Assembly: GCA_040268405.1 (NCBI GenBank) | Contig: JAWRIR010000142.1 | Coordinates: forward strand, 478-64,477 | Direction: 5' to 3' | DNA from: Thermoproteota archaeon | GTDB taxonomy: Archaea; Thermoproteota; Bathyarchaeia; Bathyarchaeales; Bathycorpusculaceae | Length of the DNA: 64,000 nucleotides | Shown: in pieces, positions 1,028 through 26,483 of the stretch | Layout of the letters: the number at the start of each line of letters is the position of its first letter | How positions within the stretch are numbered: position 1 is the stretch's first letter | Program-made: the position numbers and the translations under genes | The notes under the pieces: generated by a model | Seen by the model: the letters and a program-made list of their open reading frames with translations, nothing else | Databases searched by the model: none | Told to the model about the DNA's origin: nothing

Positions 1028-1087
1028 CCAACCTATTAGGCTTCTATTAGTGGTTGTATGTTGAAACCTATAGGGGAGGGTATAATG
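1028..1087 (+). repeat. Dispersed intergenic element, copy A
   Basis: CCAACCTATTAGGCTTCTATTAG...TATGTTGAAACCTATAGGGGAGGGTATAATG aligns with copies at 12079, 19609 and 26483(-). Confidence 0.85.
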
Positions 1088-1265
1088 GTTTTTTTCAACC
1101 CAATAATTGTTGTAAAGTTTTAGTTGAATTCGTTGTTTTGTTGGTTTAGCCCTTTCTGCCTCAACATAACAGGTGCTTGTGGCGGTAAAAAGTTTATATT
1201 CTTGTCTGATTTTTGCATTATTCCGAGATAAAGAAACAAAGTTCTATTAAAGTAGGGATTAACAC

Positions 1266-2906
1266 ATGGCATATTTAACTACAACAGGCTCAGGACAACC
1301 AGTCCTTATCCTTAAAGAAGGAACAACCCGAAGCAGAGGAAAAGAAGCCCAAAGAAACAACATTATGGCGGCACGAGTAATCGGTGAAGTCCTAAAAACC
1401 ACGTTAGGACCAAGAGGCATGGACAAAATGCTAATCGACAGCCTCGGCGACATCACAATCACTAACGACGGCGCAACCATCCTAAAAGAAATCGACGTTG
1501 AACACCCAGCAGCAAAAATGATGGTTGAAATCGCAAAAACCCAAGACGACATGGTTGGCGACGGAACAACCAGCGCAGTTGTCCTTGCAAGCGAACTTTT
1601 AAAGAAAGCAGAAGAACTGCTCGAACAAAACATTCACCCAACAATCTTGGTAAGCGGCTACCGAAAAGCAGCCCAAAAAGCAATCGAATCAGTAGGCAAA
1701 ATCGCTGAAACACTCGATATCAACGACCGCAAGACTCTGCTAAAAGTAGCATTAACTTCTACAAGCAGCAAATCAGTCGGCAGCGCAAGAGACCACCTTG
1801 CAGAAATCTCCATTGACGCAGTTAAACAAATCGCTGAAGTACGCGGAGACAAAACAATCGCCGACATAGACAACATCCAAATCATCAAGAAAACAGGCAA
1901 AAGCCTTCTTGAAACACAACTAATCAAAGGCATCATCGTTGACAAAGAAGTAGTCAACCCAGGCATGCCAAAAATGAAAGAAAACGCAAAAATCGCCCTG
2001 CTTGACGTTGCACTCGAAATCGAAAAAACTGAAATCAGCGCAGAAATCAGAATCAAAGACCCAACTCAAATGAAAGCATTCCTTGACCAAGAAACAGACA
2101 TGCTAAAAGAAATGGCTGACAAAATCAAAGCAGTCGGCGCAGACGTCATCTTCTGCCAAAAAGGCATCGACGACATGGTACAACACTTCTTATCCAAAGA
2201 AGGCATCATGGCAGCACGCCGCGTAAAAGAATCAGACCTAGACAAACTTTCACGTGCAACAGGCGCAAGAATCAGCAGTGACCTTGACGACTTAAAGAAA
2301 GAAGACCTTGGTATGGCAGGCTTAGTTGAGGAACGCAAAATCGGCGACGACAAAATGATCTTCGTCGAAAAATGCAAAGACCCACACAGCGTAGCCATCT
2401 TGCTCCGTGCAGGCCTTGAACGCATGGTTGACGAAGCTGAACGTGCAATGATTGATTCACTTTCAGTCGTTTCAGACGTTGTAGAAAACAACAAAATCGT
2501 CCCAGGCGGCGGCGCAGTAGAAATCGAAATTGCAAAAGAACTCCGCAAATACGCAACCAAAGTCGGCGGACGCGAACAACTCGCAGTTGAAGCATTTGCA
2601 GATGCAATCGAAGTCATCCCAAGAACCCTCGCAGAAAATGCAGGTCTTGAACCAATCGACATCCTTGTCCAACTCCGTTCAGCACACGATTCTGCAGACA
2701 GCAAAAACAAAGGAATCAACATTTACGAAGGCAAACTACAAGACAGCATCAAAGAAGGCGTTATCGAACCAATCATGGTTAAAGAGCAAGCAATCAAATC
2801 AGCAGCTGAATCAGCAGCAATGATCTTGCGCATTGACGACGTCATTACCGCCAAAGCACCAAAAGGCGGCGCTCCGGGCGGAATGCCTGGAATGGGCGAA
2901 GAATAA
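1266..2906 (+). CDS. ths: Thermosome subunit (group II chaperonin)
   Basis: [31 protein letters not shown] motifs; GGMPGM tail. Confidence 0.98.
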
Positions 2907-2923
2907 ACTTCCCCACCCTTAAC

Positions 2924-2995
2924 TTTTTAATTTTTATTTTTAGTTTAAACTGATTTTTTTTCCGCTTTTGTTTTTAGTGTTGCTGTTTCTTTTTA
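2924..2995 (+). terminator. Oligo-T tract, archaeal-type terminator
   Basis: Dense T runs directly after the ths stop codon. Confidence 0.5.
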
Positions 2996-3068
2996 CAAGT
3001 TTCTGCTTCTACTTTACGAAAACGTATTTATGTTTAAAGGCTTACCATTCTGCGTTAAATGCAAATGC

Positions 3069-3146
3069 GCTCTGGTAGTATAGTCCGGCCAAGTATAGCG
3101 GCCTCTCGAGTCGCGGACCCGGGTCCGAATCCCGGCCAGAGCACCA
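3069..3146 (+). tRNA. tRNA-Glu (anticodon CTC), CCA encoded
   Basis: Acceptor GCTCTGG/CCAGAGC; anticodon stem GCGGC/GTCGC with loop CT-CTC-GA; T stem CCGGG/CCCGG; ends ACCA; no intron. Confidence 0.95.
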
Positions 3147-3223
3147 AACACTCCTGTTTTGTATGCATTTTAGATTTATACTTGTTAACCCATTTTTGTT
3201 TCTGAAGTAGGCGCTAAAAGTTG

Positions 3224-4138
3224 ATGACCTTCAAGAAACAGCAAACCGTTGCTTGCATATCAGGAGTCAATGTGGGTGGGCAACCAGGTGAAAACCCAAC
3301 CTGCATCATACCCAGCATCTTCTACGATGGCCACAAAATCGTCAGTGACCCAATCAAAGGCGAATTTGACAAGCAGCAAGCAGAAAAGCTACTCAAAAAT
3401 GCTGAAGAATTGTCAGAGAAAACCGGTAACCCATTCTTCGTTGACGTTATGGGAACAACCCCAGAAGCCCTAATCAGATACGTGGACTTTGTCACGGAAA
3501 CTACTTCGGTTCCTTTTCTGGTGGACAGTGTTTCAAGGGAAGCTAAACTCCAAACTGTTAAGCACATTGAAAAAGTTGGGTTAATCGACAAAGTAATCTA
3601 CAATTCCCTTAGCTTTCTATCTGCGCCTCAAGAGTATCAGGTGTTAAAGGAGTTAGGCGTTAAATCTGCGGTAGTGCTGGCTTATGACCCCAAGCAGCCT
3701 CAAGGGGGCAGAGACGTAATCTTGTCAGGGAACAGTAAACAGCCGGGTTTGCTGAATATCGCTCAACAGGCAGCAATAACAAACGTGCTTGTGGACACAG
3801 CGGTGATGAATCTTACAAGCATCGGCGATGCAAGCAAGGCTATCTATTCAATTAAAGAAAAGTTTGGGTTGCCGGCAGGGTGCGCGCCTTCTAATGCCAT
3901 TTCATTATGGAAAAAACTTCAAGAAGGCAAATTTGGACCCGACGCCCTGAAAGTCTGTTTGGGCGCTTCAATGCTTTTCACGCAGACGATGGCTGCAGAC
4001 TTTGTGATTGCAGGTCGAATAGATTACGTTGACGCTGTGTTTCCAGCTTGTGCGATGGCGGATACAATAATTGCTGCTGAAGCCCAGAAACTTGGGGTAA
4101 AAATCTCTGTAAATCATCCATTTTACAGAATAATGTAG
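3224..4138 (+). CDS. mtrH: Tetrahydromethanopterin S-methyltransferase subunit H-like methyltransferase
   Basis: GGQPGENPT..SIFYDGHKIV, FLVDS, VLVDTAV, GCAPSNA motifs typical of MtrH. Confidence 0.88.
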   Translation: MTFKKQQTVACISGVNVGGQPGENPTCIIPSIFYDGHKIVSDPIKGEFDKQQAEKLLKNAEELSEKTGNPFFVDVMGTTPEALIRYVDFVTETTSVPFLVDSVSREAKLQTVKHIEKVGLIDKVIYNSLSFLSAPQEYQVLKELGVKSAVVLAYDPKQPQGGRDVILSGNSKQPGLLNIAQQAAITNVLVDTAVMNLTSIGDASKAIYSIKEKFGLPAGCAPSNAISLWKKLQEGKFGPDALKVCLGASMLFTQTMAADFVIAGRIDYVDAVFPACAMADTIIAAEAQKLGVKISVNHPFYRIM

Positions 4139-4312
4139 CTCCTATGCTGACAAAATTGGGTAAGCCCTTCATTTTTTGAGTTAATTTTTAGTCTACGTTC
4201 TACATTAGTTTAATTTGGTCATTTAACGCTCGGCAAACTTTCTTTTCTTAAAAGAAACTAATTTAAGGCTGATGTAGCCGTATGCATTGAAACAAAGTGT
4301 GTGAAAAGACAA

Positions 4313-7300: not shown

Positions 7301-7376
7301 AATCAACAAGGCAATCCTTGACCACTACGGCGAAGTCAACGAAGAATACTCCGAGTTACTAACACAACAAAGATAA
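4313..7376 (+). CDS. mgtA: Mg2+-translocating P-type ATPase with a C-terminal extension; the 5' end needs a +1 shift or a non-canonical start
   Basis: TGES, PELLP, DKTGTLT, KGAPEE, TGD, GDGINDAP motifs; frame open from 4305 and includes GLSSEEAESRLEVYGLNEL upstream of the ORF-track TTG at 4566. Confidence 0.9.
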
Positions 7377-7404
7377 AAAAACAAAAATTGCCTAAAAAAG
7401 GCGG

Positions 7405-8508: not shown

Positions 8509-9090
8509 TTAGTTTTCTCCGTGTATTTTTTTGTTCTCTTCTTTCTTTTCCATTTGGGATAGTTGCTTATTAATTTGCGCTAAATCTTCCTGTAATCTTT
8601 TAATTGCATCTTCAATATGGCTGCGTTTGTTTTCAAGCACCTTGATTGTGTCTTCAGGTTTACACCTGCCTTCCTCAAGAAACAAAGCAAAAGGTGTCTT
8701 AGGAAGTTGTGCCTTATTGACTTCAACGTCCAGCACATCTTTCATGTACTCTTTCATTAATTCAACCATCGTGGAAACTAAACGGTTTTCTTTAGCTAAC
8801 GTGTGCTCGAGAACTTTTTTGCCTTCTGGCGTGATGATGTAAATTTTTCTTTTTCTTTTTGTTCCGCAGTCCCATTCTCCCTTGATGTACCCAGAAGTTT
8901 CTAGGTCCTGCAGAATTGGGTAGATTCCGCCTGCTGTTGGCTTCCAAAAGCCGCTTGTTCTTTCATCTACGGCTTTCATCATTTCGTAGCCGTGATGCGG
9001 TTTTTTGTTTAACAGTATTAGCACGGCGATTCTGATGTAGCCTTTTTGTGTTTCTTTTAGCCAACCAGTGGCTTTTTCTTCTGCATGCAT
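8509..9090 (-). CDS. PadR-family transcriptional regulator with C-terminal coiled coil
   Basis: LILLNKKPHHGYEMM...GGIYPILQDLE.SGYI...RKIYIITPEG; ATG 9090 preferred. Confidence 0.92.
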   Translation of the reverse strand: MHAEEKATGWLKETQKGYIRIAVLILLNKKPHHGYEMMKAVDERTSGFWKPTAGGIYPILQDLETSGYIKGEWDCGTKRKRKIYIITPEGKKVLEHTLAKENRLVSTMVELMKEYMKDVLDVEVNKAQLPKTPFALFLEEGRCKPEDTIKVLENKRSHIEDAIKRLQEDLAQINKQLSQMEKKEENKKIHGEN

Positions 9091-9148
9091 TTTCTCTTTC
9101 TCTAATATGTAGCTTGTATAGATACATTGCGGAATATTTATATTTTGA

Positions 9149-9162
9149 CGCAATATATTGCG
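9149..9162. promoter_or_regulatory. Candidate PadR operator
   Basis: Perfect palindrome CGCAATATATTGCG between divergent padR and ABC genes; related half-site ACATTGCGG near 9124. Confidence 0.55.
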
Positions 9163-9195
9163 GTGATTACTATTGAAAAAGGATGGTGTTAACCA

Positions 9196-10218: not shown

Positions 10219-10220
10219 AC

Positions 10221-11417
10221 ATGGGTGCAACAAGAGTTTTAGAAACAAGTTTCCGAATAGCTTGGAAAGACCTTAAAGAACTTTCAAGAAACAAACTAGG
10301 TTTGCTAATGCTGATTCTTATGCCACTTTTAATGATGGCTATGATCGGCTTCATTTATCCAAGCGGCAGCTCAATCGACATGAGCAACCTCAAAGTCCAA
10401 GTTGTCAACTTAGACACTGGATTTATGGACACAACAGTAAGCAACGCTTTCACTTCAGCAGTAAACCAAATCAACTCTGCATCAGTGAACATGGCCTTTT
10501 CCAACGGAACAACACTGGACGCTTTAACAGACAGCATTCAACGCGGAGACGTAGACGCAGGCATAATCATCCCTGAGAACTTTACCTATTGCGTACTTAC
10601 CAACCAGCAAGCAAACATTACAATCATCAGCGACAATTCTAACCCGCAAGTAAGCCAACAAGTCAGCGGAATATTAAGCAGCATAATCAAAACAATGAGC
10701 ACACAAGTCGCACAATCAAAACTGGCTACAACCTTAAACATCACCTCAACTGAAGCAGCTGCATACATGGCACCTTACGAAGTAAGTGCACAAGGTGTAG
10801 TCGGCGGCAGCACAAGCTACTTCGAATTCATTGCACCAGGAATGATGATGATGACTGTAATGATGAGCGTCATGACCGGTTTACCAGGCGCTATTACTCA
10901 TGAAAGAGAAATGGGCACCTTAGACGGCGTAATGGTTGCACCAATCAACAGACTATCAATCATCCTAGGAAAAACAATCGCGCAACTAACAAGAGGGCTC
11001 ATGCAAGGCTTCATAATTATGATATTAGCCGTAGTCCTGTTCGGGGTTACGATACAAGGTAGCATCCTACTCGTAATCGGCTTGCTCTTGCTCGGAGTCT
11101 TTAGCTTCGTAGGTTTAGGCGTAGCCTTAACGTCACTGGCAAAAGACCAAGAAACAGCTTCAATGATACTGATGGCAATCATGTTCCCGATGATGTTCCT
11201 AAGCGGCATATTCTTCCCTGTAAAGATGATGCCTGGATTTATGCAAACAATCAGCAGCTTCCTGCCGTTAACGTATGCTTCCGATGCAATGCGAAAGGTC
11301 ATGGTGCTAGGCGCAGGCGTACCACAGATAGCAACAAACCTTACAGTGCTGGTAGTGTTCGGTGTCGTGATGCTTGCAATCGCTGTTCCACTGTTCCGCA
11401 GAATGATGACACGCTAA
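10221..11417 (+). CDS. ABC-2 type permease
   Basis: TM1, extracellular loop, then EREMGTL..VMVAP and five TM helices. Confidence 0.93.
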   Translation: MGATRVLETSFRIAWKDLKELSRNKLGLLMLILMPLLMMAMIGFIYPSGSSIDMSNLKVQVVNLDTGFMDTTVSNAFTSAVNQINSASVNMAFSNGTTLDALTDSIQRGDVDAGIIIPENFTYCVLTNQQANITIISDNSNPQVSQQVSGILSSIIKTMSTQVAQSKLATTLNITSTEAAAYMAPYEVSAQGVVGGSTSYFEFIAPGMMMMTVMMSVMTGLPGAITHEREMGTLDGVMVAPINRLSIILGKTIAQLTRGLMQGFIIMILAVVLFGVTIQGSILLVIGLLLLGVFSFVGLGVALTSLAKDQETASMILMAIMFPMMFLSGIFFPVKMMPGFMQTISSFLPLTYASDAMRKVMVLGAGVPQIATNLTVLVVFGVVMLAIAVPLFRRMMTR

Positions 11418-11430
11418 AATCGCCAAAAAC

Positions 11431-12072: not shown

Positions 12073-12078
12073 AATTTA

Positions 12079-12214
12079 CCAACCTATTTGCAGCCTATTA
12101 GGATCCTAATAGCAGTTATATGTTGAAACCTATAGGGGGTAGGTCAAAACCAGCCTTAGCCTGCAATTCACTAAGAGGCGTAGAGGTGCTATTGACGGAA
12201 AAACAAGCCAAAAG
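12079..12214 (+). repeat. Dispersed intergenic element, copy B (long form)
   Basis: Perfect palindrome CTATTAGGATCCTAATAG at 12095-12112; GAAACCTATAGGGGGTAGGT; second module CACTAAGAGGCGTAGAGGTGCTATTGACGGAAAA from 12169. Confidence 0.88.
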
Positions 12215-12225
12215 GGTATTGAGAT

Positions 12226-12834: not shown

Positions 12835-15800
12835 TTGCCGTACATTAAAAGAATCGAATTAAAAGGCTTCAAGTCTTTTGGGCCACAAACAGTAAAAGTA
12901 AACCTTGACAAAGGTTTCACAGCAATCACTGGTCCAAACGGCAGCGGCAAAACAAACATCATGGACGCTCTACTATTCTCACTTGGAGAATTATCTACAA
13001 GAAGAATGAGAGCTGACAACGCTTCCAGACTAATTTTTCACGGTTCAGAAAAAGGCGGCTTAGAAAAATCCAAAATGGCCAAAGTCGTCGTCCAATTTGA
13101 CAACGCAGACGGCTTAATGCCAGTAGACACCTCCACAGTGACCATTTCAAGGGAAGTCTACCGTAACGGCCAAAGCGTTTACCGTCTAAACGGCAGAAGA
13201 ATGAGCCGTACCCACATAATTGAAACCCTTTCAATGGCTGCAATCAGCAGCATGAGCCAAAACATCATTCCTCAGGGTCAAATTACACGTTTAACAGAAA
13301 TTAACCCTCTTGATCGTCGAAAAATCATTGAAGAACTCATTGGTATCGGTCAATATGATTCTGAAAAGGCTGAAGCAGAAGAAAAACTGCGCAGCGCCGA
13401 CATCAGCATCCGCACCGCCATGGGCAGAATTGATGAAGTCCAAAAACGCCTCGACGACTTGGAACGTGAACGTAACCAACTCTCGCGGTACACTTTCATT
13501 CAAGAGGAAACCAAAAAGTTCCAAGCTATCAAAATTTCAAACGAAATAACCCAACTTAATGCGAAGCTTGAGGAGTCCGCGGCTAATACCGAAAAAGTGC
13601 AAGCCCGCGTTGATAAACTAAAAGAGCAACGAGAAATGCGCAGAGGTAAACGTCATGAAATTGAGGGTGAATGGCGTAAACTTAGCGGTGAAACTCTTGA
13701 AGAAGGCGGCAGCCAAGTCTTAAAAGTCCAAATCAACATCGGCGAATTAAAATCGCGCTTAACCGAGTTAACAACCCAAATTAGTTCAGGACAAGCAAGC
13801 CTTGAAAGCCTAAAACGTGTCGCCCAAAACAACCAAACCCACCACGACTCAATCCAAAACGAAATCAAAGACAACCGCCTAAAAATCCGCGCCTTTAGAA
13901 CTGAATACGAAAAACTCAAGGCACAAATTGCCGAAAAAGAAGCTACACATGAGACTTTAGCTAAAGAAACTGCTCAGCTTTGGGAAGGTCTTGGCGATAA
14001 CAACCAGAAAGTTCGTGGCGTAGAAATGCAGATTGAAAGCCATACCAAACGCCTCGCCTACCTGCGTTCAGAATACACTAAAGACAAGTCTGCAATGCGA
14101 ACCTGCGCTGGACGCCTCAAGAACCTCACGGTGAGGAAAGAAAAGTTTCTTGTTAACCTTTCTGAACTGGAAAAGTCTCTTGTTGAACTTGAACAAGTGC
14201 AAAGAGACCAAAAAGCTCAGATAAAGAATCTTGAAAACACAATTAACCGTAAAACAAGCCAAAAAGAGCTTGTGCAAAAAGAAATCGCCGACGCCGAACG
14301 CATTGCACGCTCCGCCAAAGACGCAGTAATAGAGTTTGCAACCCAAAAAGACCTTGCCGCAACCATCGCACAAGAAGAAAAAGCTCTGCGCAGCATAGAA
14401 GAAATGGGCGACGTGGGAGCAATCAACGGCATCCACGGCAGACTCCGCAGCCTAATCAAGATTGACAAAAACTACAAGAAAGCCGTCGAAGCAGCATCCA
14501 CCGGTTGGCTTGACGCGTTGGTAGTTAAAGATGTTGACTCAGCTTTCATGTGTGCTGAAACTTTAAAACGCATGAAACTGGGCAGAATCAAAATCATACC
14601 CCTCACAGGAACAACTCCTCAGAAGACCAAGCCTGCCCCAATCCGTGATGGCGTAGTAGGCTCGCTTGCAGGATTTATTAAGTTTGACAAAAAGTTCGAG
14701 TTTGCAGTAGAATACGTCTTCGGAGACACCATAGTTGTTTCCAGCGACAAAACCGGTTTCGCTCTTTCCAACAACGGTTACCGCTCAGTCACTGTTAACG
14801 GTGACTTGTATGAACCGGGAGCGTTTGAAAGCGGCTTCTACCGGGCACCAATTGATTTCTCAACAATCATTCCCAGTGAGAACGCGCTGAAAAGCCTTGA
14901 TGAAGCAGTTAAGGCACTCCAAACTCACTTAACCCAAAGAGGTTCAGACATAACAGGCATCGACGAAGAAATTGAACGCGCCAAAATCGAAATGACCCGG
15001 CTCACAGAATTCATCACCACTTTGGACCGGGAAATCGTGCGAATTAAACGCAGCGCTAAACGTACACAGCTTAACGTTCGCCACACTGAAAAGTACGGCA
15101 ATAAACTGGAACGTGAAATCGCAGCTTACAAAGGCCGCATGAGCATGTACATGTCCGAACGCAACGCAATCAAGAAGTCACTGCAGAAGAATCATATTGA
15201 ACTTTCCGAGTTACGTCAAAAAACCGATCTTAGCCACATTCAAGACCTTGAAGTGCAAAGAGAAAGAATCGGTGAAGAAGCCAACACGCTTCGTCAAAAC
15301 CTTGGGTCGCTGCAAACTGAAATAAACACGCGGCAATCCCAGTTCGATAACGTGCTTCGTGTAGGTTACCAGAACGTCAAAATCCAGTTGTCTAAGGTTG
15401 AGCAGCAGCAGAAGAAGCTTGAAAAAGAAATCGCTGAAGCCTTGCAGCAACGTGAAAACTTGACCAAGGAGCTTGACGATTTAGAGAAAAGCCGTGTTGA
15501 GCTTTCTAACGCTGTGTTTTCTGCTCGTGAAGAATCTAAAAAGTTTACGACTCAAATTGACGCTATCGACACTGAACTGCGCCTTTTGGACGCTGAGTAT
15601 GAGCAGGCTGACATGCTGCTTAACCAGTTAACCCTAACAATTCAAACCAGCAACCTACGTTATCAGAACCTGCAAAGCCAGCTTAAACAGTACGGGTTTG
15701 AACAGGTGCTTGAAACTAACCAGAAACAGGTTGAAGACGCAGACACAACCATCCGCATGATGCAGTTTGAACTTGAACGCATCGGCGCCGTCAACCAACT

Positions 15801-16404
15801 CGCGCTTAGCCACTACGCCGACCAAATCGCACGTTACCGTGAACTATCCGTGCGCTTAAACGAGTTGGAACGTGAAAAACAGGCAATCGTCGCTTTCATG
15901 GATGAAATTGATGCTAAGAAACGTAAAGTCTTCATGAACGCGTTTGATAAAATCAACACCAGCCTCCAAGGCTACTTTGACAAGCTATCCGGGGGCGGAA
16001 CGGCAACGTTGAAACTGGAAAATCCTGATGACCCCTTCACTGGCGGCATAGACATGATTGTCCAATTCCCAAACAAACCCGCAATCGTCGTCAGCGGCGC
16101 TTCCGGTGGCGAACGTTCATGTTCAGCAGTCGCCTTCATCTTCAGCCTTAAAGAGTTCTCGCCAGCTTCATTCTATATCCTTGACGAAGCTGACGCCCAC
16201 TTAGACGCTTTCCACACAACCAAACTTGCCGAACTATTGCTTCAGGAAGCATCCAGAACCCAATTTATCGTTATTAGTTTGCGTCCTGAAATGGTTAACA
16301 AAGCTCAAAAAGTCTACGGTGTCTACGAACGCAACGGCATTAGCAACGTTGTTACCGCCAAGTTCCCTCCGCCTGAACCAACAAAAGGAGAGTTATCCCG
16401 GTAA
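12835..16404 (+). CDS. smc: Chromosome segregation protein SMC
   Basis: GFKSF, GPNGSGKTN Walker A, long coiled coils, hinge (GIHGRL...GRIKIIPL), SGGERS signature, ILDEADAHLD Walker B. Confidence 0.97.
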   Translation: MPYIKRIELKGFKSFGPQTVKVNLDKGFTAITGPNGSGKTNIMDALLFSLGELSTRRMRADNASRLIFHGSEKGGLEKSKMAKVVVQFDNADGLMPVDTSTVTISREVYRNGQSVYRLNGRRMSRTHIIETLSMAAISSMSQNIIPQGQITRLTEINPLDRRKIIEELIGIGQYDSEKAEAEEKLRSADISIRTAMGRIDEVQKRLDDLERERNQLSRYTFIQEETKKFQAIKISNEITQLNAKLEESAANTEKVQARVDKLKEQREMRRGKRHEIEGEWRKLSGETLEEGGSQVLKVQINIGELKSRLTELTTQISSGQASLESLKRVAQNNQTHHDSIQNEIKDNRLKIRAFRTEYEKLKAQIAEKEATHETLAKETAQLWEGLGDNNQKVRGVEMQIESHTKRLAYLRSEYTKDKSAMRTCAGRLKNLTVRKEKFLVNLSELEKSLVELEQVQRDQKAQIKNLENTINRKTSQKELVQKEIADAERIARSAKDAVIEFATQKDLAATIAQEEKALRSIEEMGDVGAINGIHGRLRSLIKIDKNYKKAVEAASTGWLDALVVKDVDSAFMCAETLKRMKLGRIKIIPLTGTTPQKTKPAPIRDGVVGSLAGFIKFDKKFEFAVEYVFGDTIVVSSDKTGFALSNNGYRSVTVNGDLYEPGAFESGFYRAPIDFSTIIPSENALKSLDEAVKALQTHLTQRGSDITGIDEEIERAKIEMTRLTEFITTLDREIVRIKRSAKRTQLNVRHTEKYGNKLEREIAAYKGRMSMYMSERNAIKKSLQKNHIELSELRQKTDLSHIQDLEVQRERIGEEANTLRQNLGSLQTEINTRQSQFDNVLRVGYQNVKIQLSKVEQQQKKLEKEIAEALQQRENLTKELDDLEKSRVELSNAVFSAREESKKFTTQIDAIDTELRLLDAEYEQADMLLNQLTLTIQTSNLRYQNLQSQLKQYGFEQVLETNQKQVEDADTTIRMMQFELERIGAVNQLALSHYADQIARYRELSVRLNELEREKQAIVAFMDEIDAKKRKVFMNAFDKINTSLQGYFDKLSGGGTATLKLENPDDPFTGGIDMIVQFPNKPAIVVSGASGGERSCSAVAFIFSLKEFSPASFYILDEADAHLDAFHTTKLAELLLQEASRTQFIVISLRPEMVNKAQKVYGVYERNGISNVVTAKFPPPEPTKGELSR

Positions 16405-17135: not shown

Positions 17136-17874
17136 CATTCAAACAGAGGCTGTTGAGCAACAGGTAGAGGTTCAACCGACCGCGCCAACGCAAACAGCAC
17201 CCATTGACCAGCCAGCACCAACCGTGCAGCTTGAACAGCCAGTTGAACAGACCGCGACTGAGCAGCCCAAACAAGCCTCCACCGCAGAACAGGATGACGT
17301 TGACGATTCAAAAGGGTTAACCGAAGCCCAAGCAGCAGAAAAACTAAGACGCAACTTAGCGTTAATCGAGGCAGCCCTATACGTTGCAGGACGTCCCTTA
17401 GACCTAAACGAACTCTGCCAAGCAGCAAACAGCCGTTCAAAAAAGAAAGTCAAAAAATACACTGAACTGGTCATGCAAGAATACGCCGCAAGAAACTCGC
17501 CCATGGAAATCTTGGCTTTGAAAGATGAACGTTACGTTTTGCAGGTTAAAGCCGAATTTACTCCACTTGTTAAAAAATTGGTAAATCGTCCACTGTTATC
17601 TTCTGGTCCGCTTAAGACGCTTTCCTACATCGCGTTTAGGCAGCCCATCACCCAGAAACGTGTGGTTGAAGTCCGAGGCCAACACGCATATGGACACGTG
17701 AAACAGCTTAAAGAAATGGGTTTAATCACTTCAGAACGCGTAGGACGCAGCATGGCACTCAAAACCACCGACTACTTCGCTGACTACTTCGGCTTAACAC
17801 AAGACACAACATCAATGAAACGAGAATTAAGACGCATTTTCGGCGACGCATTAAAAGATGACGGACAACCCTAA
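17107..17874 (+). CDS. scpB: Segregation/condensation protein B with acidic Gln/Pro-rich N-terminal extension
   Basis: LIEAALYVAGRPL, LKTLSYIAFRQPITQKRVVEVRG, TTDYFADYFGL. Confidence 0.92.
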   Translation: MEKPDHQSSDIQTEAVEQQVEVQPTAPTQTAPIDQPAPTVQLEQPVEQTATEQPKQASTAEQDDVDDSKGLTEAQAAEKLRRNLALIEAALYVAGRPLDLNELCQAANSRSKKKVKKYTELVMQEYAARNSPMEILALKDERYVLQVKAEFTPLVKKLVNRPLLSSGPLKTLSYIAFRQPITQKRVVEVRGQHAYGHVKQLKEMGLITSERVGRSMALKTTDYFADYFGLTQDTTSMKRELRRIFGDALKDDGQP

Positions 17875-17888
17875 ACTGTACTTGATTG

Positions 17889-18752
17889 TTAGGTTGCGGG
17901 TTTAGGTTTCTGTCTTTTTCGATATGTAAATACGGACACAGAACTGACAATTGTTATTGCCACAATCACAACTATTGTGATTATCAAAGCGATTATTTGC
18001 CAGTCAAAACCAAACAATTGACCTGTCGGCGATATTGATTGAGTTGGGGTTGGTTCAGAGTTTTGTGTTTGTGATGGCTTAACCGTTGCTGCTGGCGATG
18101 ATGTTGTTGAATTGCTGTCGAGATTAAATGTTTTGGTGTTACTCCAATCACTCTCGGAGCCAGTAAAATTGTAGTAATAGGTTGCTCCAAGGGGTATCAT
18201 GTCTCCGGCATAAACCTGATTAGAGTATCCAAAAAGTGCTTTTACTTGAAAGTCAACTTGACCGCCTTGAGAACCCTCAGAAGGCATAGCAATAAAAAAG
18301 TTGTAACCTGTAGACTCTTCATTCCAACTTAGTCCGCCTACAACTACTGTATCAGTTGAACCCCAAGCGTGAACATAATCTCGTGTATTCTCAAGAGTAG
18401 CGGCTACGCCAGCATAATAATTCCAAGAATCTTCAAAGTGTCCTTTCCAACGAATATTATACAATAACGCGATATTGTTACCAGCCAAATTATTATAGGC
18501 GCTGAAGGGTTGGTTATTTATTACAACCTCTATAGACCTATTCTCTATGTGATAACCTTCTTGTGTAGTTACACTCTTTCCTGTGTATGGGTCTATCGTA
18601 GTCACAGGTGGTACATCATATGGATGATGAGCAAGTCTCAAAGTAAACTCTGGAACGGAAGGCTTGGTTATTTCTGAATTAACGGGTTTAATAATTGTGA
18701 GACTTGACAGAATTAATATGGTGACAAGCGTTAAGGTAACATACTTGCGCAT
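17889..18752 (-). CDS. Cell-surface protein with signal peptide and C-terminal TM anchor
   Basis: KPSVPEFTL..PYDVPP..IDPYTG motif; Thr/Ser linker; TM plus YRKRQKPKPAT tail. Confidence 0.8.
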   Translation of the reverse strand: MRKYVTLTLVTILILSSLTIIKPVNSEITKPSVPEFTLRLAHHPYDVPPVTTIDPYTGKSVTTQEGYHIENRSIEVVINNQPFSAYNNLAGNNIALLYNIRWKGHFEDSWNYYAGVAATLENTRDYVHAWGSTDTVVVGGLSWNEESTGYNFFIAMPSEGSQGGQVDFQVKALFGYSNQVYAGDMIPLGATYYYNFTGSESDWSNTKTFNLDSNSTTSSPAATVKPSQTQNSEPTPTQSISPTGQLFGFDWQIIALIITIVVIVAITIVSSVSVFTYRKRQKPKPAT

Positions 18753-18886
18753 ACCTTAATCTTAAAAACGCTCGCAGATAAAAAAATACCTGCAAAGTGC
18801 TGCAATCTTACTGTTAATAGACAACTTGCTTGTTAAACAAGATGTTTTAAAAAGCCTTCTAAATTAATACCCACGATAATTTGCTG

Positions 18887-19498
18887 TTAGGCTGCGGGTT
18901 TCTGTCTTCTTCTGTATGCGTATACGAATGCAGAGCTGACAAGTGTTATTGCCGCAACTGACACAATTATTGGGAGATAGCCCTGCGTTTCTGAGGTATC
19001 ATGTGGCGATTCGTGTTGGCTGTTTATTTCGATATAGGCGTTGGCAATAGTTTCAGTATGGATATTGTAATTTTGACTGGGCGGGTAACCTGGCTCACTA
19101 TAATCAAATACAACTTTCACAGTCAAATTATGCCGCCCTTCAGCGAGGTTATGTAACTGAATAAATCCTTCAAACCAAACATCACTTCCCGGCTGTTCAC
19201 CTATAATCGAATGCGTTATTCTAACCCGTTGAAATTCTCCCTCGTCTAAAGCATATTGGAATTGCCTCGAAGTCTCAAGTGTAGGACCACCATGATAATG
19301 AGTTTTGTAAGTCTCAAACCCAACATCTATGGAAATATTATTCGAACTGTAAGTCGTGTTAACCGGTGATAAAAAGCAGATTTCTGGATTTGCAGGCGCA
19401 GCAACAAAATTTGCCCCAACCCTCGACATAAACATTAGCGACGACAGCGCCAACAAAAGCAGAAACGAAAATGCAACCGCAAACACTTTACTCTGCAT
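18887..19498 (-). CDS. Cell-surface Ig-like protein with C-terminal TM anchor
   Basis: Signal peptide; CFLSPVNTTY...LAEGRHNLTVKV; TM plus YRRRQKPAA tail. Confidence 0.78.
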   Translation of the reverse strand: MQSKVFAVAFSFLLLLALSSLMFMSRVGANFVAAPANPEICFLSPVNTTYSSNNISIDVGFETYKTHYHGGPTLETSRQFQYALDEGEFQRVRITHSIIGEQPGSDVWFEGFIQLHNLAEGRHNLTVKVVFDYSEPGYPPSQNYNIHTETIANAYIEINSQHESPHDTSETQGYLPIIVSVAAITLVSSAFVYAYRRRQKPAA

Positions 19499-19608
19499 AA
19501 TCCCTAACACACTTACAATTCACTCGGACACCTACTTAACCTAAAAGCATTTTCGTCAAGAAACTTTGACTACCAGTAAAACTGCCTTTCAATGCTTTAT
19601 TTTTTAAA

Positions 19609-19680
19609 CCAACCTATTAGGATCCTAATAGAAACTATATGCAGAAACCTATAGGGGGTAGGTGCTAATGGCTGAAAAAC
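19609..19680 (+). repeat. Dispersed intergenic element, copy C
   Basis: CCAACCTATTAGGATCCTAATAGAAACTATATGCAGAAACCTATAGGGGGTAGGT then GCTAATGGCTGAAAA. Confidence 0.9.
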
Positions 19681-19830
19681 GTTTCATTAGCATGTTGAAA
19701 TTCAGTGCTTTTAACCCTTGGAAACCAGTCTGCCCTGAACTGTCGTAAAGTAATCAACAGCCAACAAAACTCGCACCCAAACCCATCTGCTTGCAGAATC
19801 TGCCACAACCAGCCACACAGCACAGAATAG
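19668..19830 (+). pseudogene. Possible frameshifted small Cys4 zinc-ribbon ORF downstream of element C
   Basis: MAEKRFISMLKFSAFNPWKPVCP then, after removing one base near 19738, (D/E)CRKVINSQQNSHPNPSACRICHNQPHSTE*. Confidence 0.3.
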
Positions 19831-20010
19831 CACGAAACCAAAAAAGCAAGTTTCCTCTCAACCTGTTGGTTGTTGTTGTGCATAGCAAATTTTCGGCAAC
19901 AACTTCATACAAAAAACAAACCCAAACACAAAACTGCAGTCTTTAAACGGATACGTTTATATGGAAATTAACAGTTTTACTGGTACGCGAATCTTAAAGG
20001 AATGTAGAAT

Positions 20011-20406
20011 ATGTCTACTCATAGCAGTTTACGCAAAAGAAAACTTACAGGCGGCAAAAAAAGAGTTTACCGTTCTAAAAAGAAGTACGAAGCAGCAGGT
20101 TACCCAGCTGAAACAACACTCGGTGAACCAAAACGCAAAAGCACAAGAGGCTTAGGCGGCAACATTAAAGTTAAAGCTTTAACAGAAAAATTCGCCTCAG
20201 TAACAGACCAAAAAACAGGTCAAACCCAGAAAGTACAAATTACACGTGTAGTCAGAAACGGCGCAAACGTTGACTACAACCGTAGAGGCGTAATCACCAA
20301 GGGCGCAGAAATTGAAACAACTCTTGGCCACGCAAAAGTAACCAGCAGACCAGGCGCAGACGGAATCATTAACGCTGTCTTGATTGCTGGAAAAGAAAAA
20401 CAATAA
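20011..20406 (+). CDS. rps8e: 30S ribosomal protein S8e
   Basis: RKRKLTGGK, RGLGGNIKV, NVDYNRRGVITKGA, VTSRPGADG. Confidence 0.97.
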   Translation: MSTHSSLRKRKLTGGKKRVYRSKKKYEAAGYPAETTLGEPKRKSTRGLGGNIKVKALTEKFASVTDQKTGQTQKVQITRVVRNGANVDYNRRGVITKGAEIETTLGHAKVTSRPGADGIINAVLIAGKEKQ

Positions 20407-20425
20407 AAAAATATTTTTTAATTTT

Positions 20426-20758
20426 TTATCTTCTATGCCCATGTAGCTGCTGTTTTTGCTGCTCCGCTTGCTGTTGAGCCTTAATTTTAGAAAGCTGCGC
20501 TGCAAGTTTTAGAATAATCTGCTCTTTCGGCTCATTCTTTTCAACAGTAAGCATGCCAACTTTTGCCCATGGAGCTTTAGGGTAACCCGCAGTAGGGTTA
20601 ACATCGTTTTGCAGTCCAAGTTTGTCAGCCGCTTCTTTAATTTCCAAAATTTTAGGGCTAACAACAGCCAAGTTTTTGGGAACCCGCCTGCCCTCGCTTT
20701 TGCTTTTGGCTGCGTCAAAGTAGACGGGCCAAATTATTGCGTTATCAGATTTTCGCAT
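20426..20758 (-). CDS. srp19: Signal recognition particle 19 kDa protein
   Basis: IIWPVYFDA..SKSEGRRVPKNLAV..P. Confidence 0.93.
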   Translation of the reverse strand: MRKSDNAIIWPVYFDAAKSKSEGRRVPKNLAVVSPKILEIKEAADKLGLQNDVNPTAGYPKAPWAKVGMLTVEKNEPKEQIILKLAAQLSKIKAQQQAEQQKQQLHGHRR

Positions 20759-20771
20759 TTACTTTTTCTCC

Positions 20772-22571: not shown

Positions 22572-22578
22572 GTAAATG

Positions 22579-23649
22579 TTACATGTTTCTTTTAATCAAG
22601 AATTCGGCGAACGCTTTTAATTTTTCCTTAGCTTCCGGCGTAGGTAACAAGCGGTCAACCTCGTTCCAGCTGTCAACAACGATTTTTTCAGCAGTCTGCC
22701 TTGTGTGCTCGATGGCGTGGTACTTCTGCATTAACGCTATTGCTTCGTCACGCAGGTTCTGGTCACTTGTGTGCATGTTCAAAATTTCAATAAGCCGCTT
22801 CTTGTCAGCTTCGCTGGCGTTTTCAAGTGTGTAAATAACCATTAAGGTTCGTTTGCCTTCGGTGATGTCTTGTCCGACACCGCCTTTCTTTTTGGCGAAT
22901 TCTTGACCAGTTAAATCTAGAATGTCATCTTGCATCTGGAAAGCCACACCAATACTTTCAGCAAACCTGCCCAATTTCTCTACAAGTTGCTTATCTGCGC
23001 CTGCGAGAACAGCCGCCATTTTTGCCGCCATACGCGCTAAAGTGCCTGTTTTGTAAGCGCACATTTGCAGGTAATCATCTTCACCGATTTTGTCAGCGTT
23101 AGCTAAACCTCGGTGCCAAGCGATATCCATGGCTTGACCCATGCTTAAGTTAATCATTTCTTGAACATAAACTTCGTAAACGCCGCAAAGCACCTCTGCG
23201 GGCAAATCAACTTCTTTAGTCATTAAAGCCAACAGGGGCAAATAGTACATGGCGTTGCCGACGTTAACCGAAATGTCTATTCCGTACAGCTTGTAGCTGC
23301 AGGGTTTTCCCCGTCGCAACTCGGAGCTGTCTTCAATATCGTCGATTACGAGGGTTCCGTTGTGGATTACTTCTGGGATGATTGCGAAGTCTGCGCAGTA
23401 ACCTTGTTTTTTGCCCAAAGCCTCGCAGATGAGCAAGAACAGGGCTGGACGCCAACGTTTTCCTCCACGGTCGAGCATGTCCCAAATGGGGTCAGCTATT
23501 CCTTTATCCATAGTTTCCAGGTTGTAACTGTAAGCTGGCGGGGTGACTTGGAAAAGGATTGAGTCTTTAGTGAATTTACGTGGAATATACTTTTCAATAG
23601 CTTTGTCAATTAACGGCGCTTTTTCTTCAAGGAATTTTTCGATGTCCAA
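22579..23649 (-). CDS. idsA: Polyprenyl (geranylgeranyl) diphosphate synthase
   Basis: GGKRWRP, LVIDDIED..LRRG, KTG, FQMQDDILD motifs. Confidence 0.93.
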   Translation of the reverse strand: MDIEKFLEEKAPLIDKAIEKYIPRKFTKDSILFQVTPPAYSYNLETMDKGIADPIWDMLDRGGKRWRPALFLLICEALGKKQGYCADFAIIPEVIHNGTLVIDDIEDSSELRRGKPCSYKLYGIDISVNVGNAMYYLPLLALMTKEVDLPAEVLCGVYEVYVQEMINLSMGQAMDIAWHRGLANADKIGEDDYLQMCAYKTGTLARMAAKMAAVLAGADKQLVEKLGRFAESIGVAFQMQDDILDLTGQEFAKKKGGVGQDITEGKRTLMVIYTLENASEADKKRLIEILNMHTSDQNLRDEAIALMQKYHAIEHTRQTAEKIVVDSWNEVDRLLPTPEAKEKLKAFAEFLIKRNM

Positions 23650-23652
23650 GCG

Positions 23653-24738
23653 TTAACATGCTCCTCTAAGTGCGTACCCTTCTATGTTAAATCCTCTTGT
23701 TTTTAACCACTCCGCAGTTTTGCCGCAGATAACCAAGGGAACCTTAGCTAAACCAGCAACATTTTCTGCGCCAACCAAAAACATAACGTTTCTCAATTCA
23801 TTAAGGTATTCTGAAATAACCTGCTCAACCATATTGCTGCTTTTAGTTGCTGCTTCCAAAACTGGCTGCGCTATTCCTGCTAAACACGAGTCAAGAGCTA
23901 ACGCCTTTGCAACATCTATTCCTGAACGTACACCGCCAGACGCGATTATCGGCATTTTTGTTGCCTGATACACTTCTGTAACGCTTGCCGCGGTTGGAAT
24001 ACCCCAGTCCCAAAACGCTTTACCCAACGCTTTTTCTCCACGATAATATTCTACTGCCGCGAAACTGGTTCCGCCTACGCCGCCGACGTCAATGGCTTTT
24101 ACGCCTGCATTTTTGAGGGCTTTCGCGTCTCCAGCACAGATGCCTGCGCCAGTTTCTTTAACGATAACTGGTTTGTCAAGCTCGTTTGCGATGTCACAGA
24201 TTTTTGCTAAGACGCCTTTGAAGTTGGTTTGTCCTTCAGGTTGAACAGCTTCTTGCAGGGCGTTTAGGTGGATTGCAACTGCGTCTGCATCTATCATTTC
24301 TACGACTTTTCGGACTTCTTTTATGCCGTAGCCGTGGACAAGTTGGACGCCGCCGATGTTTGCGATTAAAAACGCGTTTGGTGCGGCTTTGCGTGCTACC
24401 GCATAGGTTCTTTCAAGATGATTGTTTTCGACGGCTGCTCTTTGGCTTCCCAAACCCATGCCGAGCCCGAGTTTTTCTACGGCAACGGCGATGTTTTGGT
24501 TAATCTCGATGGCCTCTTCTGTACCGCCGGTCATGGCCTCCACAATTAAGGGGGCTGAAAAAGTTTTGTTTAAAAAAGAAGTTGAAAGGTTTATGTCCTT
24601 TCTGTCTACTTCTGGCAAGGCTCGATGAACAAACCTTATGTCCTCAAACCCTGCTGTAACGTTTTTAGCTTGTGCCTTCTCTTCAAGGCAAATTCTGATA
24701 TGTTCTGCTTTTCTTTTTTCAGTTTTCTGGGCAGCCAT
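23653..24738 (-). CDS. fni: Type 2 isopentenyl-diphosphate delta-isomerase
   Basis: RKAEHI, MTGG, GSQR, HLNALQE..QPEG, VKETG.G, WGIPT, ASGGVRSG. Confidence 0.96.
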   Translation of the reverse strand: MAAQKTEKRKAEHIRICLEEKAQAKNVTAGFEDIRFVHRALPEVDRKDINLSTSFLNKTFSAPLIVEAMTGGTEEAIEINQNIAVAVEKLGLGMGLGSQRAAVENNHLERTYAVARKAAPNAFLIANIGGVQLVHGYGIKEVRKVVEMIDADAVAIHLNALQEAVQPEGQTNFKGVLAKICDIANELDKPVIVKETGAGICAGDAKALKNAGVKAIDVGGVGGTSFAAVEYYRGEKALGKAFWDWGIPTAASVTEVYQATKMPIIASGGVRSGIDVAKALALDSCLAGIAQPVLEAATKSSNMVEQVISEYLNELRNVMFLVGAENVAGLAKVPLVICGKTAEWLKTRGFNIEGYALRGAC

Positions 24739-24739
24739 C

Positions 24740-25558
24740 TTACGTCTTCTCTATTACAGTGCCTAACACGCTTTGGTCTGTTAAGGCTCTGTAAATAGAT
24801 AAGCCTTTTGTGGCTCCTGTAACTGTAACTGGAATTCCTGCTTCCACGACTGGAATGAGTTCAGCGATTTTTCCTGCCATTCCGCCTGTAACGTCGGTTC
24901 CTTGTGCTTTTCCAAGCTTGGGTTGCAAGGCTTTGAGTTCTGCAAGGTTTAGGTGCTTGATTGGTTTGGCTTCTGGATTAGTTTTTGGGTCTGCTTCAAA
25001 GATGCCGTCAGTGTCAACGCCGATTACCACTTTTTCAGCATTGTACTTCAATGCTAAGTAGGCTACAAGTTGGTCGCCGCCAAGTATTGTGAAGCCAAGT
25101 TTTTCGTCCATTACTGCGTCGCCGTACATGACTGGTGTGAAAATCATTTTGCTCATGGCTTTAAGGGCGGTTTCATCAAAGGTTTTGACTTTGCCGTTTT
25201 CTGTTATAATGCAGCATGATGGTGCAACGCTAATGGCTGGAATTTCATGCCAAATCATAGCATCCATAACTAAACCGTTTAGAACGGTCATCATGTGGTG
25301 TGTTTCGGCGAAACCAAACTTTTGTGTTGGGTCTTCTTTGTAACCGTCTTTGATGCCGTATTTAGCTGCGGTTGGGTGACCGAAACTGCCGCCTCCGTGA
25401 ACCACAATCAGGTTGTCAAGGTCTGCGCGTTTGATTTCTTCAGCTAAGCGGTTGATTATTTGAGTATTCGGACTTGCCTCCGCGGTTTTGTCGGTGATGG
25501 CTGAACCGCCGAGTTTCAGGATGATGGGTCGTGCATCGTTCATTGTAATCATTACCAT
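24740..25558 (-). CDS. ipk: Isopentenyl phosphate kinase
   Basis: LKLGGSAITDK, VHGGGSFGH, DVTGGMAGK; located in the mevalonate cluster. Confidence 0.92.
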   Translation of the reverse strand: MVMITMNDARPIILKLGGSAITDKTAEASPNTQIINRLAEEIKRADLDNLIVVHGGGSFGHPTAAKYGIKDGYKEDPTQKFGFAETHHMMTVLNGLVMDAMIWHEIPAISVAPSCCIITENGKVKTFDETALKAMSKMIFTPVMYGDAVMDEKLGFTILGGDQLVAYLALKYNAEKVVIGVDTDGIFEADPKTNPEAKPIKHLNLAELKALQPKLGKAQGTDVTGGMAGKIAELIPVVEAGIPVTVTGATKGLSIYRALTDQSVLGTVIEKT

Positions 25559-25715
25559 GATATCTAAATTCAGGACACTTAATTAACTTAATCAATTTTA
25601 CAGTAGCCACCACACGGCTGTAGGCTGTGTTAACTCTTTTCTAATCCAAACTGGCAACCAAAATCAATATTTCGGCTAATCAACGGTTATAAGCCCTCAA
25701 CTGCACCTCAAAAAC

Positions 25716-26303
25716 ATGTTTCAAAGTAACAAGACAAAAGCTGGCTTGATTTTCTTTGTTGGACCAACACAATTTATCCTTGCCGTAATCATTTGTGAGG
25801 CACTTTATCCGGGCTACAATCTTGGTCAACAAGCTATGAGTGACTTAGGCAGTTGGACTTTAGTAGGCAGCGCTGCTGCAATTTTTAACGTATCAACTGT
25901 CCTTCTTGGAATAACGATTGTTGCGGGTGCATTGCTTGTTAGGAAATACTTGAAAGATAGGTTTTTCATTGGATTGTTAATCATTGCTGGTATTGGGAAT
26001 GCGGGTGTAGGTGTAGTTACTGAGGATATTTTTGGTCCAGTGCACCTCATTTTTGCGTTAGCCTTCTTTATTTCATGGGCAGCAGCCGCAATACTTTCCT
26101 TTAAATTTTTGAAATCGCCTTTCTCCTGTGCTTCTGCAGTTTTGGGTGTGTTCTCTCTTGTTGCATTTGTTGTATCGCTTTTAGCGGGAAAACCCGGTTC
26201 TGTTTTCAATATAGGCATAGGGTTTGGGGGAATAGAACGGTTAATAGTTTACCCATTGTTCTTGTGGACAATCGGGTTTGGCGGCTACCTGCTTGCTGAG
26301 TAG
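25716..26303 (+). CDS. DUF998-like membrane protein
   Basis: YPGY...AMSDLG, GVGVVTED..VH, GGIERLIVYP; multi-TM. Confidence 0.75.
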   Translation: MFQSNKTKAGLIFFVGPTQFILAVIICEALYPGYNLGQQAMSDLGSWTLVGSAAAIFNVSTVLLGITIVAGALLVRKYLKDRFFIGLLIIAGIGNAGVGVVTEDIFGPVHLIFALAFFISWAAAAILSFKFLKSPFSCASAVLGVFSLVAFVVSLLAGKPGSVFNIGIGFGGIERLIVYPLFLWTIGFGGYLLAE

Positions 26304-26334
26304 AACAGCAAACATCAATAACACCTTTTTTTAA

Positions 26335-26483
26335 CATACTTTTGGACTGGCTTTCAGCCAATAGGACCTACCCCCCTTAGTGATTTTGGGTTTGCACGGT
26401 GCAGGTAGAGCCTACCCATACTGTTTCTACCTACCCCCTATAGGTTTCAGCATAGATATCCTATTAGGCTCCAAATAGGATTG
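26335..26483 (-). repeat. Dispersed intergenic element, copy D (long form, inverted)
   Basis: Reverse complement CAATCCTATTTGGAGCCTAATAGGATATCTATGCTGAAACCTATAGGGGGTAGGT...CACTAAGGGGGGTAGGTCCTATTGGCTGAAAG. Confidence 0.88.

Follow-up and report, generated by a model that had tools for sequence, protein, structure and literature searches.

A modular intergenic repeat family

The 64,000-nucleotide stretch analysed here (the window) is part of contig JAWRIR010000142.1 (C142) of a Thermoproteota archaeon of the Bathyarchaeia (assembly GCA_040268405.1, hereafter G000; 2.74 Mb in 167 contigs), and it carries four copies, A to D, of a short repeat that combines a palindrome with a G-rich string. The 14-nt core of the repeat, GAAACCTATAGGGG, was found exactly at 1063 (+), 12125 (+), 19644 (+) and 26448 (−) and at no other place in the window, and four core matches were reached in 0 of 100 shuffles. 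A MAFFT alignment of the copies gave about 55 nearly invariant columns, and the stretch common to all four reads CCAACCTATT.GG..CCTA.TAG-N6-TATG..GAAACCTATAGGGGGTAGGT. The 18-bp palindrome CTATTAGGATCCTAATAG is perfect in copies B and C, and a second box, CTAAGRGG..GTAG.GT, is present in copies B and D. The family, the palindrome and the second box had all been proposed in an initial annotation made from the letters of the window, and all of them stand. The annotation had also placed the starts of copies A and B 12 and 7 bp after a stop codon, in agreement with our measurements of 11–12 nt past the stop of the open reading frame (ORF) at 447–1016 and 7 nt past that of a 63-aa ORF without Pfam match. 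Its view that the copies lie beside small accessory membrane or surface genes was right as to their intergenic position but too narrow as to the neighbours, among which are thermosome, SMC, S8e, DUF998 and THUMP genes. The four stretches are members of a dispersed, modular, non-coding repeat family with about 150 copies in the genome.

The core 14-mer occurs 91 times exactly in G000 and 126 times with at most one mismatch. Profile searches with a 58-nt head module (M1, comprising palindrome box, spacer and G-box) and with a profile of the second G-box plus tail (M23) returned 144 copies on 92 contigs and 114 copies, respectively. An optional module (MX) was found in 17 copies and a T-rich upstream module (MU) in 32. 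In a k-mer census of G000 this family was the only abundant repeat, and nothing was repeated beyond ~200 bp. Nearly all M1 copies (141 of 144, 98%) lie outside an ORF map covering 86% of the genome. The copies are spaced by a median of ~18 kb (about 18–25 kb) with mixed strands, and only five M1 pairs lie within 600 nt of each other, all of them direct (same strand).

Each element draws on a few building blocks: a palindrome box made of one to three 11-bp CCTAWTWGG units, whose period corresponds to about one helical turn; a 5-nt spacer occurring in discrete alleles; the G-box GCAGAAACCTATAGGGGGTAGGT; optional linker modules; a second G-box; and a tail, GCTAWTGGC-N8-GCCAWWAGCATGTTGAAAA. The left edge of core-anchored copies is sharp at (A)CCAACC, and conservation spans the G-box and in many copies reaches the tail. 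The tail is fused to the M1 G-box in 44 cases and stands behind a linker in 48 (47 linkers of 8–63 nt and one of 280 nt); a further 22 copies are tail-only and 50 are head-only. Full elements are 90–160 nt long, and the edge consensus of 87 of them (left ..acCAaCCTATTA, right gcATGTTGAAAA.caGT) showed ends that are not reverse complements of each other. The family is modular, high in copy number, intergenic and without a gene of its own, as are bacterial interspersed mosaic elements (BIMEs) and BOX elements, which form a functional class and not a homology family. The copies of the window and their neighbours are listed in Table 1.

Table 1. Repeat copies, their modules and nearby genes in the window.
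Feature	Position	Strand	Description
Gene next to copy A	447–1016		winged helix-turn-helix (wHTH)/TrmB-like
Copy A	1027–1125	+	M1 1027–1076, then degenerate tail GGGAGGGTATAATGG..TTGTTGTAAAG
Gene next to copy A	1266–2906		thermosome
tRNA gene	3069–3143	+	Rfam RF00005, 52 bits; between thermosome gene and ORF 3221–4138
Copy B	12079–12222	+	extra 11-bp palindrome-box unit 12079–12090; M1 12091–12145; 25-nt linker; M23 12171–12222
smc	12835–16404		copy B lies upstream
Surface-type ORF	17889–18752	−	no Pfam match
Surface-type ORF next to copy C	18887–19510	−	uncharacterised, no Pfam match; divergent
Copy C	19590–19700	+	T-rich MU GCTTTATTTTTTAAA 19590–19608; M1 19609–19664; tail 19649–19700 fused directly to M1 G-box
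rpS8e	20011–20406		next to copy C
DUF998 gene	25716–26303	+	next to copy D
Copy D	26328–26483	−	M1 26429–26483; optional MX GGGTAGGCTCTACCTG... 26385–26420; second G-box plus tail 26328–26380; antisense to both neighbours
THUMP gene	26535–27062	+	next to copy D

Copies sit between co-directional, convergent and divergent genes alike, and all four intergenic types are used. The upstream gene lies on the strand of the copy in 64 cases and on the opposite strand in 66; the corresponding counts for the downstream gene are 57 and 72 (44% of 129 co-directional), and its start is a median of 187 nt away. The initial annotation had read a Shine–Dalgarno (SD)-like motif, a TA-(A/T)TG start and peptides of the MAEK..MLK type at the end of the copies. 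These letters are present: a GGGGGTAGGTG box lies 4–5 nt ahead of an ATG or TTG at a fixed position, and a second in-frame ATG follows in 69 of 78 copies. However, the SD, start and MAEK..SMLK reading is the tail module itself. ORFs from the internal start had a median of 22 codons and reached at least 60 codons in 4.8% of cases, as compared to 4.4% for any intergenic ATG or TTG. The tail loop is a run of A in 88 copies but of T in 17, and because of this swap the peptide alternates between AEKQ and AFFQ. None of these marks a gene start; motif, start codon and peptide are parts of the conserved sequence of the element. A terminator role was also rejected, since the loop type is unrelated to the orientation of the neighbour genes (p = 1.0 and 0.28), as was MU as a promoter of the upstream gene, for which no orientation link was seen (15 vs 13, p = 0.83). 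No tie was found to a paralogous gene family (best uncorrected p = 0.017 among ~50 families) or to secreted proteins (signal-peptide-like neighbours 15% vs 14% elsewhere, genome-wide).

The RNAalifold consensus structure of 113 distinct copies from several species was empty on both strands. In hairpins H1, H1b and H3 the Watson–Crick pairing and double changes were no higher than with shuffled partners, and H2 was invariant. Some G-box stem variants (CCTA/TAGG, TATAG/CTATA and GTAGA/TCTAC around the G-rich loop) looked compensatory; they were not relied upon because the G-box is invariant in the aligned set and the other hairpins fail the shuffle test. Rfam gave no credible match on the copies and, in the window, just a tRNA elsewhere.

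The initial annotation had suggested a search for further copies in related genomes. Among 24 congeners, two others carry the family (84 and 32 core matches) and the rest are at background. Carriers make up 3 of about 29 species sampled in the genus; 16 genomes from other families of the order were likewise at background in core matches. Among 151 genomes of the family UBA233 of GTDB ("Bathy-6"), loads of at least 10 were found in about 8 of 70 genera, patchily within genera, with balanced strand counts and the highest load in G000. A scan of all species' genomes with the exact 20-nt G-box matched only metagenome-assembled genomes (MAGs) of Bathyarchaeia. At least 17 assemblies matched, the complete Bathy6-F90 genome among them; they come from peat, fen, palsa, soil and pulp-mill digesters and share the module architecture. 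The paper describing these MAGs makes no mention of repeats, transposons, integrons, mobile elements or MITEs (transposable elements of the miniature inverted-repeat type). A plain transcription-factor site, which the annotation would have favoured for a sequence with no more copies and conserved positions, is mostly disfavoured relative to a repeat family by these copies, some of which are nevertheless positionally conserved across species. The family is lineage-specific and has so far been seen only in Bathy-6 archaea.

Gene-content breakpoints and turnover of copies

We compared G000 site by site with Bathy6-F112 (G008), a close, syntenic relative with a long-read assembly that is 90–95% identical to G000; ~1.8 Mb of G008 was stitched together for this comparison. 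Colinearity was broken at 28 of 45 element-bearing intergenic regions (62%) but at only 114 of 753 others (15%; odds ratio 9.2, p = 7e-12). With intergenic regions restricted to those of at least 150 nt, breakpoints were found in 62% of regions with an element as opposed to 29% without (p = 1.6e-4). Element sites of other species were colinear with G000 in 12% of cases, compared to 55% for random sites of the same loci (p = 6e-8), a lenient control that includes intragenic positions.

Sixteen gene-scale insertions or deletions (indels) of 0.9–12 kb were observed at element sites. None of those inspected contained a recombinase; their genes were ordinary cargo and encoded an MFS-type transporter, an ABC-2 permease together with its ATPase and a regulator resembling TrmB, and several secreted proteins of a beta-helix-like type. 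At three breakpoints, on contigs C45, C50 and C109, two direct copies bracket 1.5–1.8 kb of genes in the long allele, and the short allele holds one chimeric copy that has 20–55 bp in common with each of the two. The switch point lies in the G-box in C45 and C50 (...CCTATAGGGGGT^AGGT) and at the 5' edge in C109; such a shifting point argues against a single site-specific crossover. These three chimeric junctions demonstrate recombination between copies for some events.

In the window, copy C lies at the edge of a ~2-kb segment (~17864–19940) that is reduced to ~220 bp in the congener G001, and match coordinates suggest a similar shrinkage in the four other ~72%-identity congeners searched. Besides copy C, the segment contains the two surface-type ORFs of Table 1. 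Synteny with G001 and with these congeners breaks also at copies B and D.

G000 and G008 both have a copy at most orthologous sites. Copy A is present in G000, whereas the orthologous site of G008 has no element and is ~65 bp shorter. For copy B, G008 has an element at the orthologous site with a rewritten interior (M1 65% identical, as against 83–84% in the flanks), and for copy D it has one that is 85–98% identical, depending on the module. Over 13 shared orthologous sites, the identity was 95% in coding sequence, 90% in other intergenic sequence, 82% in M1 (73% counting gaps) and 82% in the tail. The flanks were nearly identical right up to the element edges, and the interior changed in blocks: 11-bp palindrome units were gained or lost, the 5-nt spacer was swapped among alleles found in other copies, and G-box modules were lost between direct G-box repeats. 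A role of purifying selection in these copies was considered and rejected, as the opposite was seen, with elements less conserved than their flanks.

Over long times the trend is the opposite: a species with only ~70% gene identity still has a recognisable copy in the position of the one at the C60 locus, and species with ~30% divergence in their genes share an identical core 20-mer. Of seven colinear sites filled in other species, four are empty in G000. Conversion among many copies would give just this pairing of fast block turnover with a core shared unchanged between species.

Two further observations concern single loci. At one orthologous junction G000 has a head-only copy (C60:13051) and G008 a tail-only copy (C9:232262), with a nearly identical upstream gene and a homologous but strongly diverged downstream gene. 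At the copy C locus of G008, the end of contig C6 (374991–375836) and the start of contig C7 (1–846) are 100% identical over 846 bp, and the two contigs probably join there.

Weighing the origin of the repeat

We favour, with about even confidence, a BIME/BOX-like mosaic intergenic repeat that is kept by conversion and recombination among its copies and gives portable homology for gene-scale indels. Such a repeat would persist through vertical descent combined with ectopic conversion and recombination between its copies, and conversion would be the homogenising force that holds the core identical across species. The copies would offer dispersed homology at which gene segments are deleted, inserted or exchanged, and in this way may have a causal role in the breakpoints. 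Like the BIMEs of Escherichia coli and the BOX elements of Streptococcus pneumoniae, the repeat is short (about 60–160 bp), non-coding, strictly intergenic and present in more than 100 copies, with few modules in variable order and number and no gene of its own. Those elements are bacterial and unrelated in sequence, however, and BIMEs are built of repetitive extragenic palindromes (REPs) tied to REP-associated tyrosine transposases (RAYTs), which are absent here. BOX and BIME elements have been reported to act partly as RNA hairpins; no pairing constraint was seen in this family, for which a breakpoint association was measured.

Bathyarchaeia rank among the most abundant archaea of anoxic sediments and soils. 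Lateral transfer is believed to spread their accessory genes, but we know of no vehicles described for this. Here, a family of at least 100 copies per genome occupies otherwise insertion sequence (IS)-free genomes, and at 62% of its sites the gene content of close relatives breaks apart. Were the copies the cause of these breakpoints, they would be a main driver of genome plasticity in this lineage and an archaeal counterpart of the bacterial REP, BIME and BOX repeats, for which origin and spread are still under debate.

Several points weigh against this reading. No mechanism for seeding new sites emerged from the comparisons, and in the one clean presence/absence case, copy A, the flanks are too diverged to define exact ends. 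The clean two-to-one signature was found in only 3 of the 16 indels, with a possible fourth that has a copy at each end, and the remaining ones are complex replacements beside a resident copy; as most indels lack the signature, the majority of junctions are not explained by recombination between copies. The breakpoint link is a correlation, and copies may just build up where the genome is flexible. Selection on the core may also account for its identity across species, and the patchy distribution within genera agrees equally well with a truly mobile element that spreads horizontally and with repeated loss. Furthermore, the gene maps behind the neighbour and intergenic counts are crude ORF calls (86% of G000 covered), and DDE transposases were ruled out through the absence of IS-sized repeats, the DDE Pfam families not being searched directly.

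The first of the rivals, which we consider unlikely but worth keeping in view, is a truly mobile non-autonomous element in the wide sense, copied by a trans-acting enzyme that either belongs to a class not yet recognised or has its gene on a replicon that is extrachromosomal or missing from the assembly. The initial annotation had named a unit resembling MITEs, REPs or palindrome-associated transposable elements (PATEs), and the dispersed family (144 heads, 114 tails, 98% intergenic) agrees with this part of its claim. So do the high copy number with a near-identical core, the presence of copy A in G000 and its absence at the G008 site, the four empty colinear sites of G000, the patchiness within genera, and the neutrality of insertion to orientation and intergenic type. 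In a REP survey (Di Nocera et al. 2013, PMC3733652), REPs were reported in bacterial phyla only, and CGTC-type REPs likewise had no dedicated transposase.

The hallmarks of the known mobile classes were missing, however. No terminal inverted repeats (TIRs) of ~10 bp or more were found across the 87 full elements. Searches for target-site duplications (TSDs) at offsets of ±8 nt with k = 4–8 gave best counts of 7, 3, 1 and 1, compared to shuffled-pair maxima of 9, 4, 2 and 1. The HUH Y1 family of IS200 and RAYT transposases (PF01797) had 0 matches in G000 and in G008 and G005, the other two carriers of the genus, while control genomes and some repeat-free congeners did match; PF01797, PF07282, PF01548 and PF00239 all gave no match in G000 or G008. 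TnpB (PF07282) was absent from the carriers searched, in disagreement with a PATE of IS200/IS605 or a TnpB omega-RNA remnant, and IS110-type and serine recombinases were absent from G000, G008 and most carriers. A parent IS is also missing: G000 had no merged repeat region (14-mers present at least 8 times) over 200 bp and no segment of at least 300 bp with more than one partner, and the long-read G008 had no repeat of at least 250 bp in 1.02 Mb. The carrier genomes are essentially IS-free. Prokaryotic MITEs (Correia/NEMIS, Sulfolobus and haloarchaeal ones) are similarly small, non-autonomous, multi-copy, intergenic and prone to lineage-specific bursts, but differ in having the TIRs, TSDs and parent IS that were sought here.

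The initial annotation was correct that no transposase or integrase lies in the window. Genome-wide, tyrosine recombinases are the only recombinase class present in all carriers, yet they are equally present in repeat-free congeners. The five of G000 are all on contigs other than C142. One of them, on C39, lies 337 bp from a copy and was rejected as a partner, since it has orthologues in the repeat-free G013 and G010 and is missing from several carriers. Strand runs along G008 contigs numbered 41, as against 41.7 expected in a runs test, and no replication-strand bias was seen. The repeat shares with the REP/REPIN–RAYT systems, including GTAG/CGTC REPs, a high-copy, extragenic, palindromic nature and an abundance that varies between related strains, and its G-box contains GTAG. 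Unlike them, it has no Y1/RAYT and no inverted dimers (REPINs), is as common between divergent genes as elsewhere, and carries GTAG at the loop/stem boundary of the G-box and not at the element end. Some copies have been in place since the split of ~30% diverged species, which also counts against a mobile element. A viral vehicle was tried and rejected, since the two IMG/VR matches are syntenic with chromosomal regions. These two sequences, IMGVR_UViG_3300032046_006027 and IMGVR_UViG_3300021603_001028, are syntenic over 2–7 kb with C60 and C118 of G000 at ~70% identity, and although filed as viral they are probably chromosomal fragments of related Bathyarchaeia.

A bolder proposal, speculative and somewhat less likely again, is that the repeat is the cis-site of an unrecognised archaeal gene-exchange system. 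The copies would then be dispersed landing pads by which IS-free Bathyarchaeia genomes acquire, shed and exchange promoter-less cargo such as transporters and surface proteins, served by an enzyme that leaves neither TIRs nor TSDs or by a host recombinase acting on the G-box.

We regard as doubtful an attachment (att)-like site whose G-box (the 7-nt TAGGGGG between 5-bp inverted arms, ACCTA/TAGGT) or palindrome box would be the target of a tyrosine recombinase that inserts or excises gene cassettes beside resident copies. Gene segments without a mobility gene are gained or lost exactly at copies, two junction switches fall within the G-box, breakpoints are strongly enriched at copies, and tyrosine recombinases are the one class in all carriers. 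However, the switch point varies (G-box in C45 and C50, 5' edge in C109), most junctions have no second copy, and the most conserved stretch is also where homologous exchange is expected. Congeners without the repeat have these recombinases just as well, and the one that was tested does not co-occur with it. Arms of 5 bp are, moreover, very short for a core site of the Xer or Int type. The attC-like hairpins suggested in the initial annotation found no support, as the copies are dispersed on both strands ~18–25 kb apart and form no cassette arrays. Integron cassettes resemble the present case in that promoter-less cargo without mobility functions is gained and lost by a short, imperfectly palindromic site. 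In contrast to integrons, no unidirectional tandem array was found here, 9 of the 16 indels add no site, and no integron integrase context was seen, although IntI itself was not specifically searched.

Improbable, in our view, is a host-selected array of double-stranded DNA binding sites for a chromatin, nucleoid or regulatory protein, or an Orc1/Cdc6 site resembling origin recognition boxes (ORBs), under purifying selection. It would explain that primary sequence and not pairing is conserved, that the units recur with a period of about one helical turn, that the core 20-mer is identical across ~30% diverged species, and that GAAAC-N-GGGGGT loosely resembles an ORB. On the other hand, orthologous copies change faster than their neutral-looking flanks, and no link with gene orientation or gene family was seen. 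A general chromosome function is excluded, since most congeners and most of the family's genera lack the repeat. The ORB resemblance noted in the initial annotation, a GAAAC-type motif followed by a G-string as in archaeal ORBs and mini-ORBs, proved superficial beside the real ORBs of the genome. These lie next to orc1 at about 75.13–75.36 kb of C98 in G000 and read TCCAGTGGAAAT-TTT-GGGGTGTG and GAGCGGAAAC-CAA-GGGGTGTG around an AT-rich stretch. They have a TCCA..TGGA dyad, GGAAA and a 3-nt gap, whereas the element has A/TGAAAC, a 5-nt gap and no dyad; ORBs are clustered at an AT-rich region by orc1, whereas the element is dispersed ~150 times. Nearly all genomes, carriers or not, have two Orc1/Cdc6 genes, and carriers have no extra ones. 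The region C98:75004–75487, which is outside the window, is likely a replication origin in view of its layout, with the AT-rich ATGTATATTATATATTAATTATAATTATATAC between two inverted ORBs (TCCAGTGGAAATTTTGGGGTGTG on the reverse strand at ~75130–75165 and GAGCGGAAACCAAGGGGTGTG at ~75335–75362) beside orc1/cdc6.

The portable operator–promoter–ribosome-binding-site (RBS) cassette of the initial annotation, a small-peptide gene or a structured small RNA (sRNA) gene is highly improbable, the promoter/RBS cassette and peptide readings being largely refuted: the fixed spacing of the GGGGGTAGGTG box to ATG or TTG, the second in-frame ATG and the AT-rich, TATA-like MU upstream of 32 copies speak for it, but only 57 of 129 downstream genes are co-directional, downstream genes start at a distance (median 187 nt), copy D is antisense to both neighbours, ORF lengths are at the null level, the peptide switches between AEKQ and AFFQ, MU has no orientation link, and neither covariation nor an Rfam match was found.

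Consequences for assembly and annotation

The repeat breaks short-read assemblies and could serve for strain typing, and its internal SD-plus-ATG look-alike may lead annotation pipelines to predict spurious small ORFs. Contig ends of G000 were enriched 2–3 times near copies (13 of 334 within 150 bp, compared to ~5 expected). On contig C73, at about 10600–10700 (−), a full copy directly abuts the 3' end of a convergent tRNA gene (...CCAAAAAATGTTGG followed immediately by TGCGGTTGCCGGGATTTGAACCC...). In addition, nineteen pairwise overlaps of 0.3–1.4 kb with 85–97% identity were found between contigs of G000, many of them at contig ends (for example, C41:1–1414 with C110:1104–2517 and C5:7581–8586 with C161:2401–3406), which suggests that strain variants were co-assembled in this MAG.

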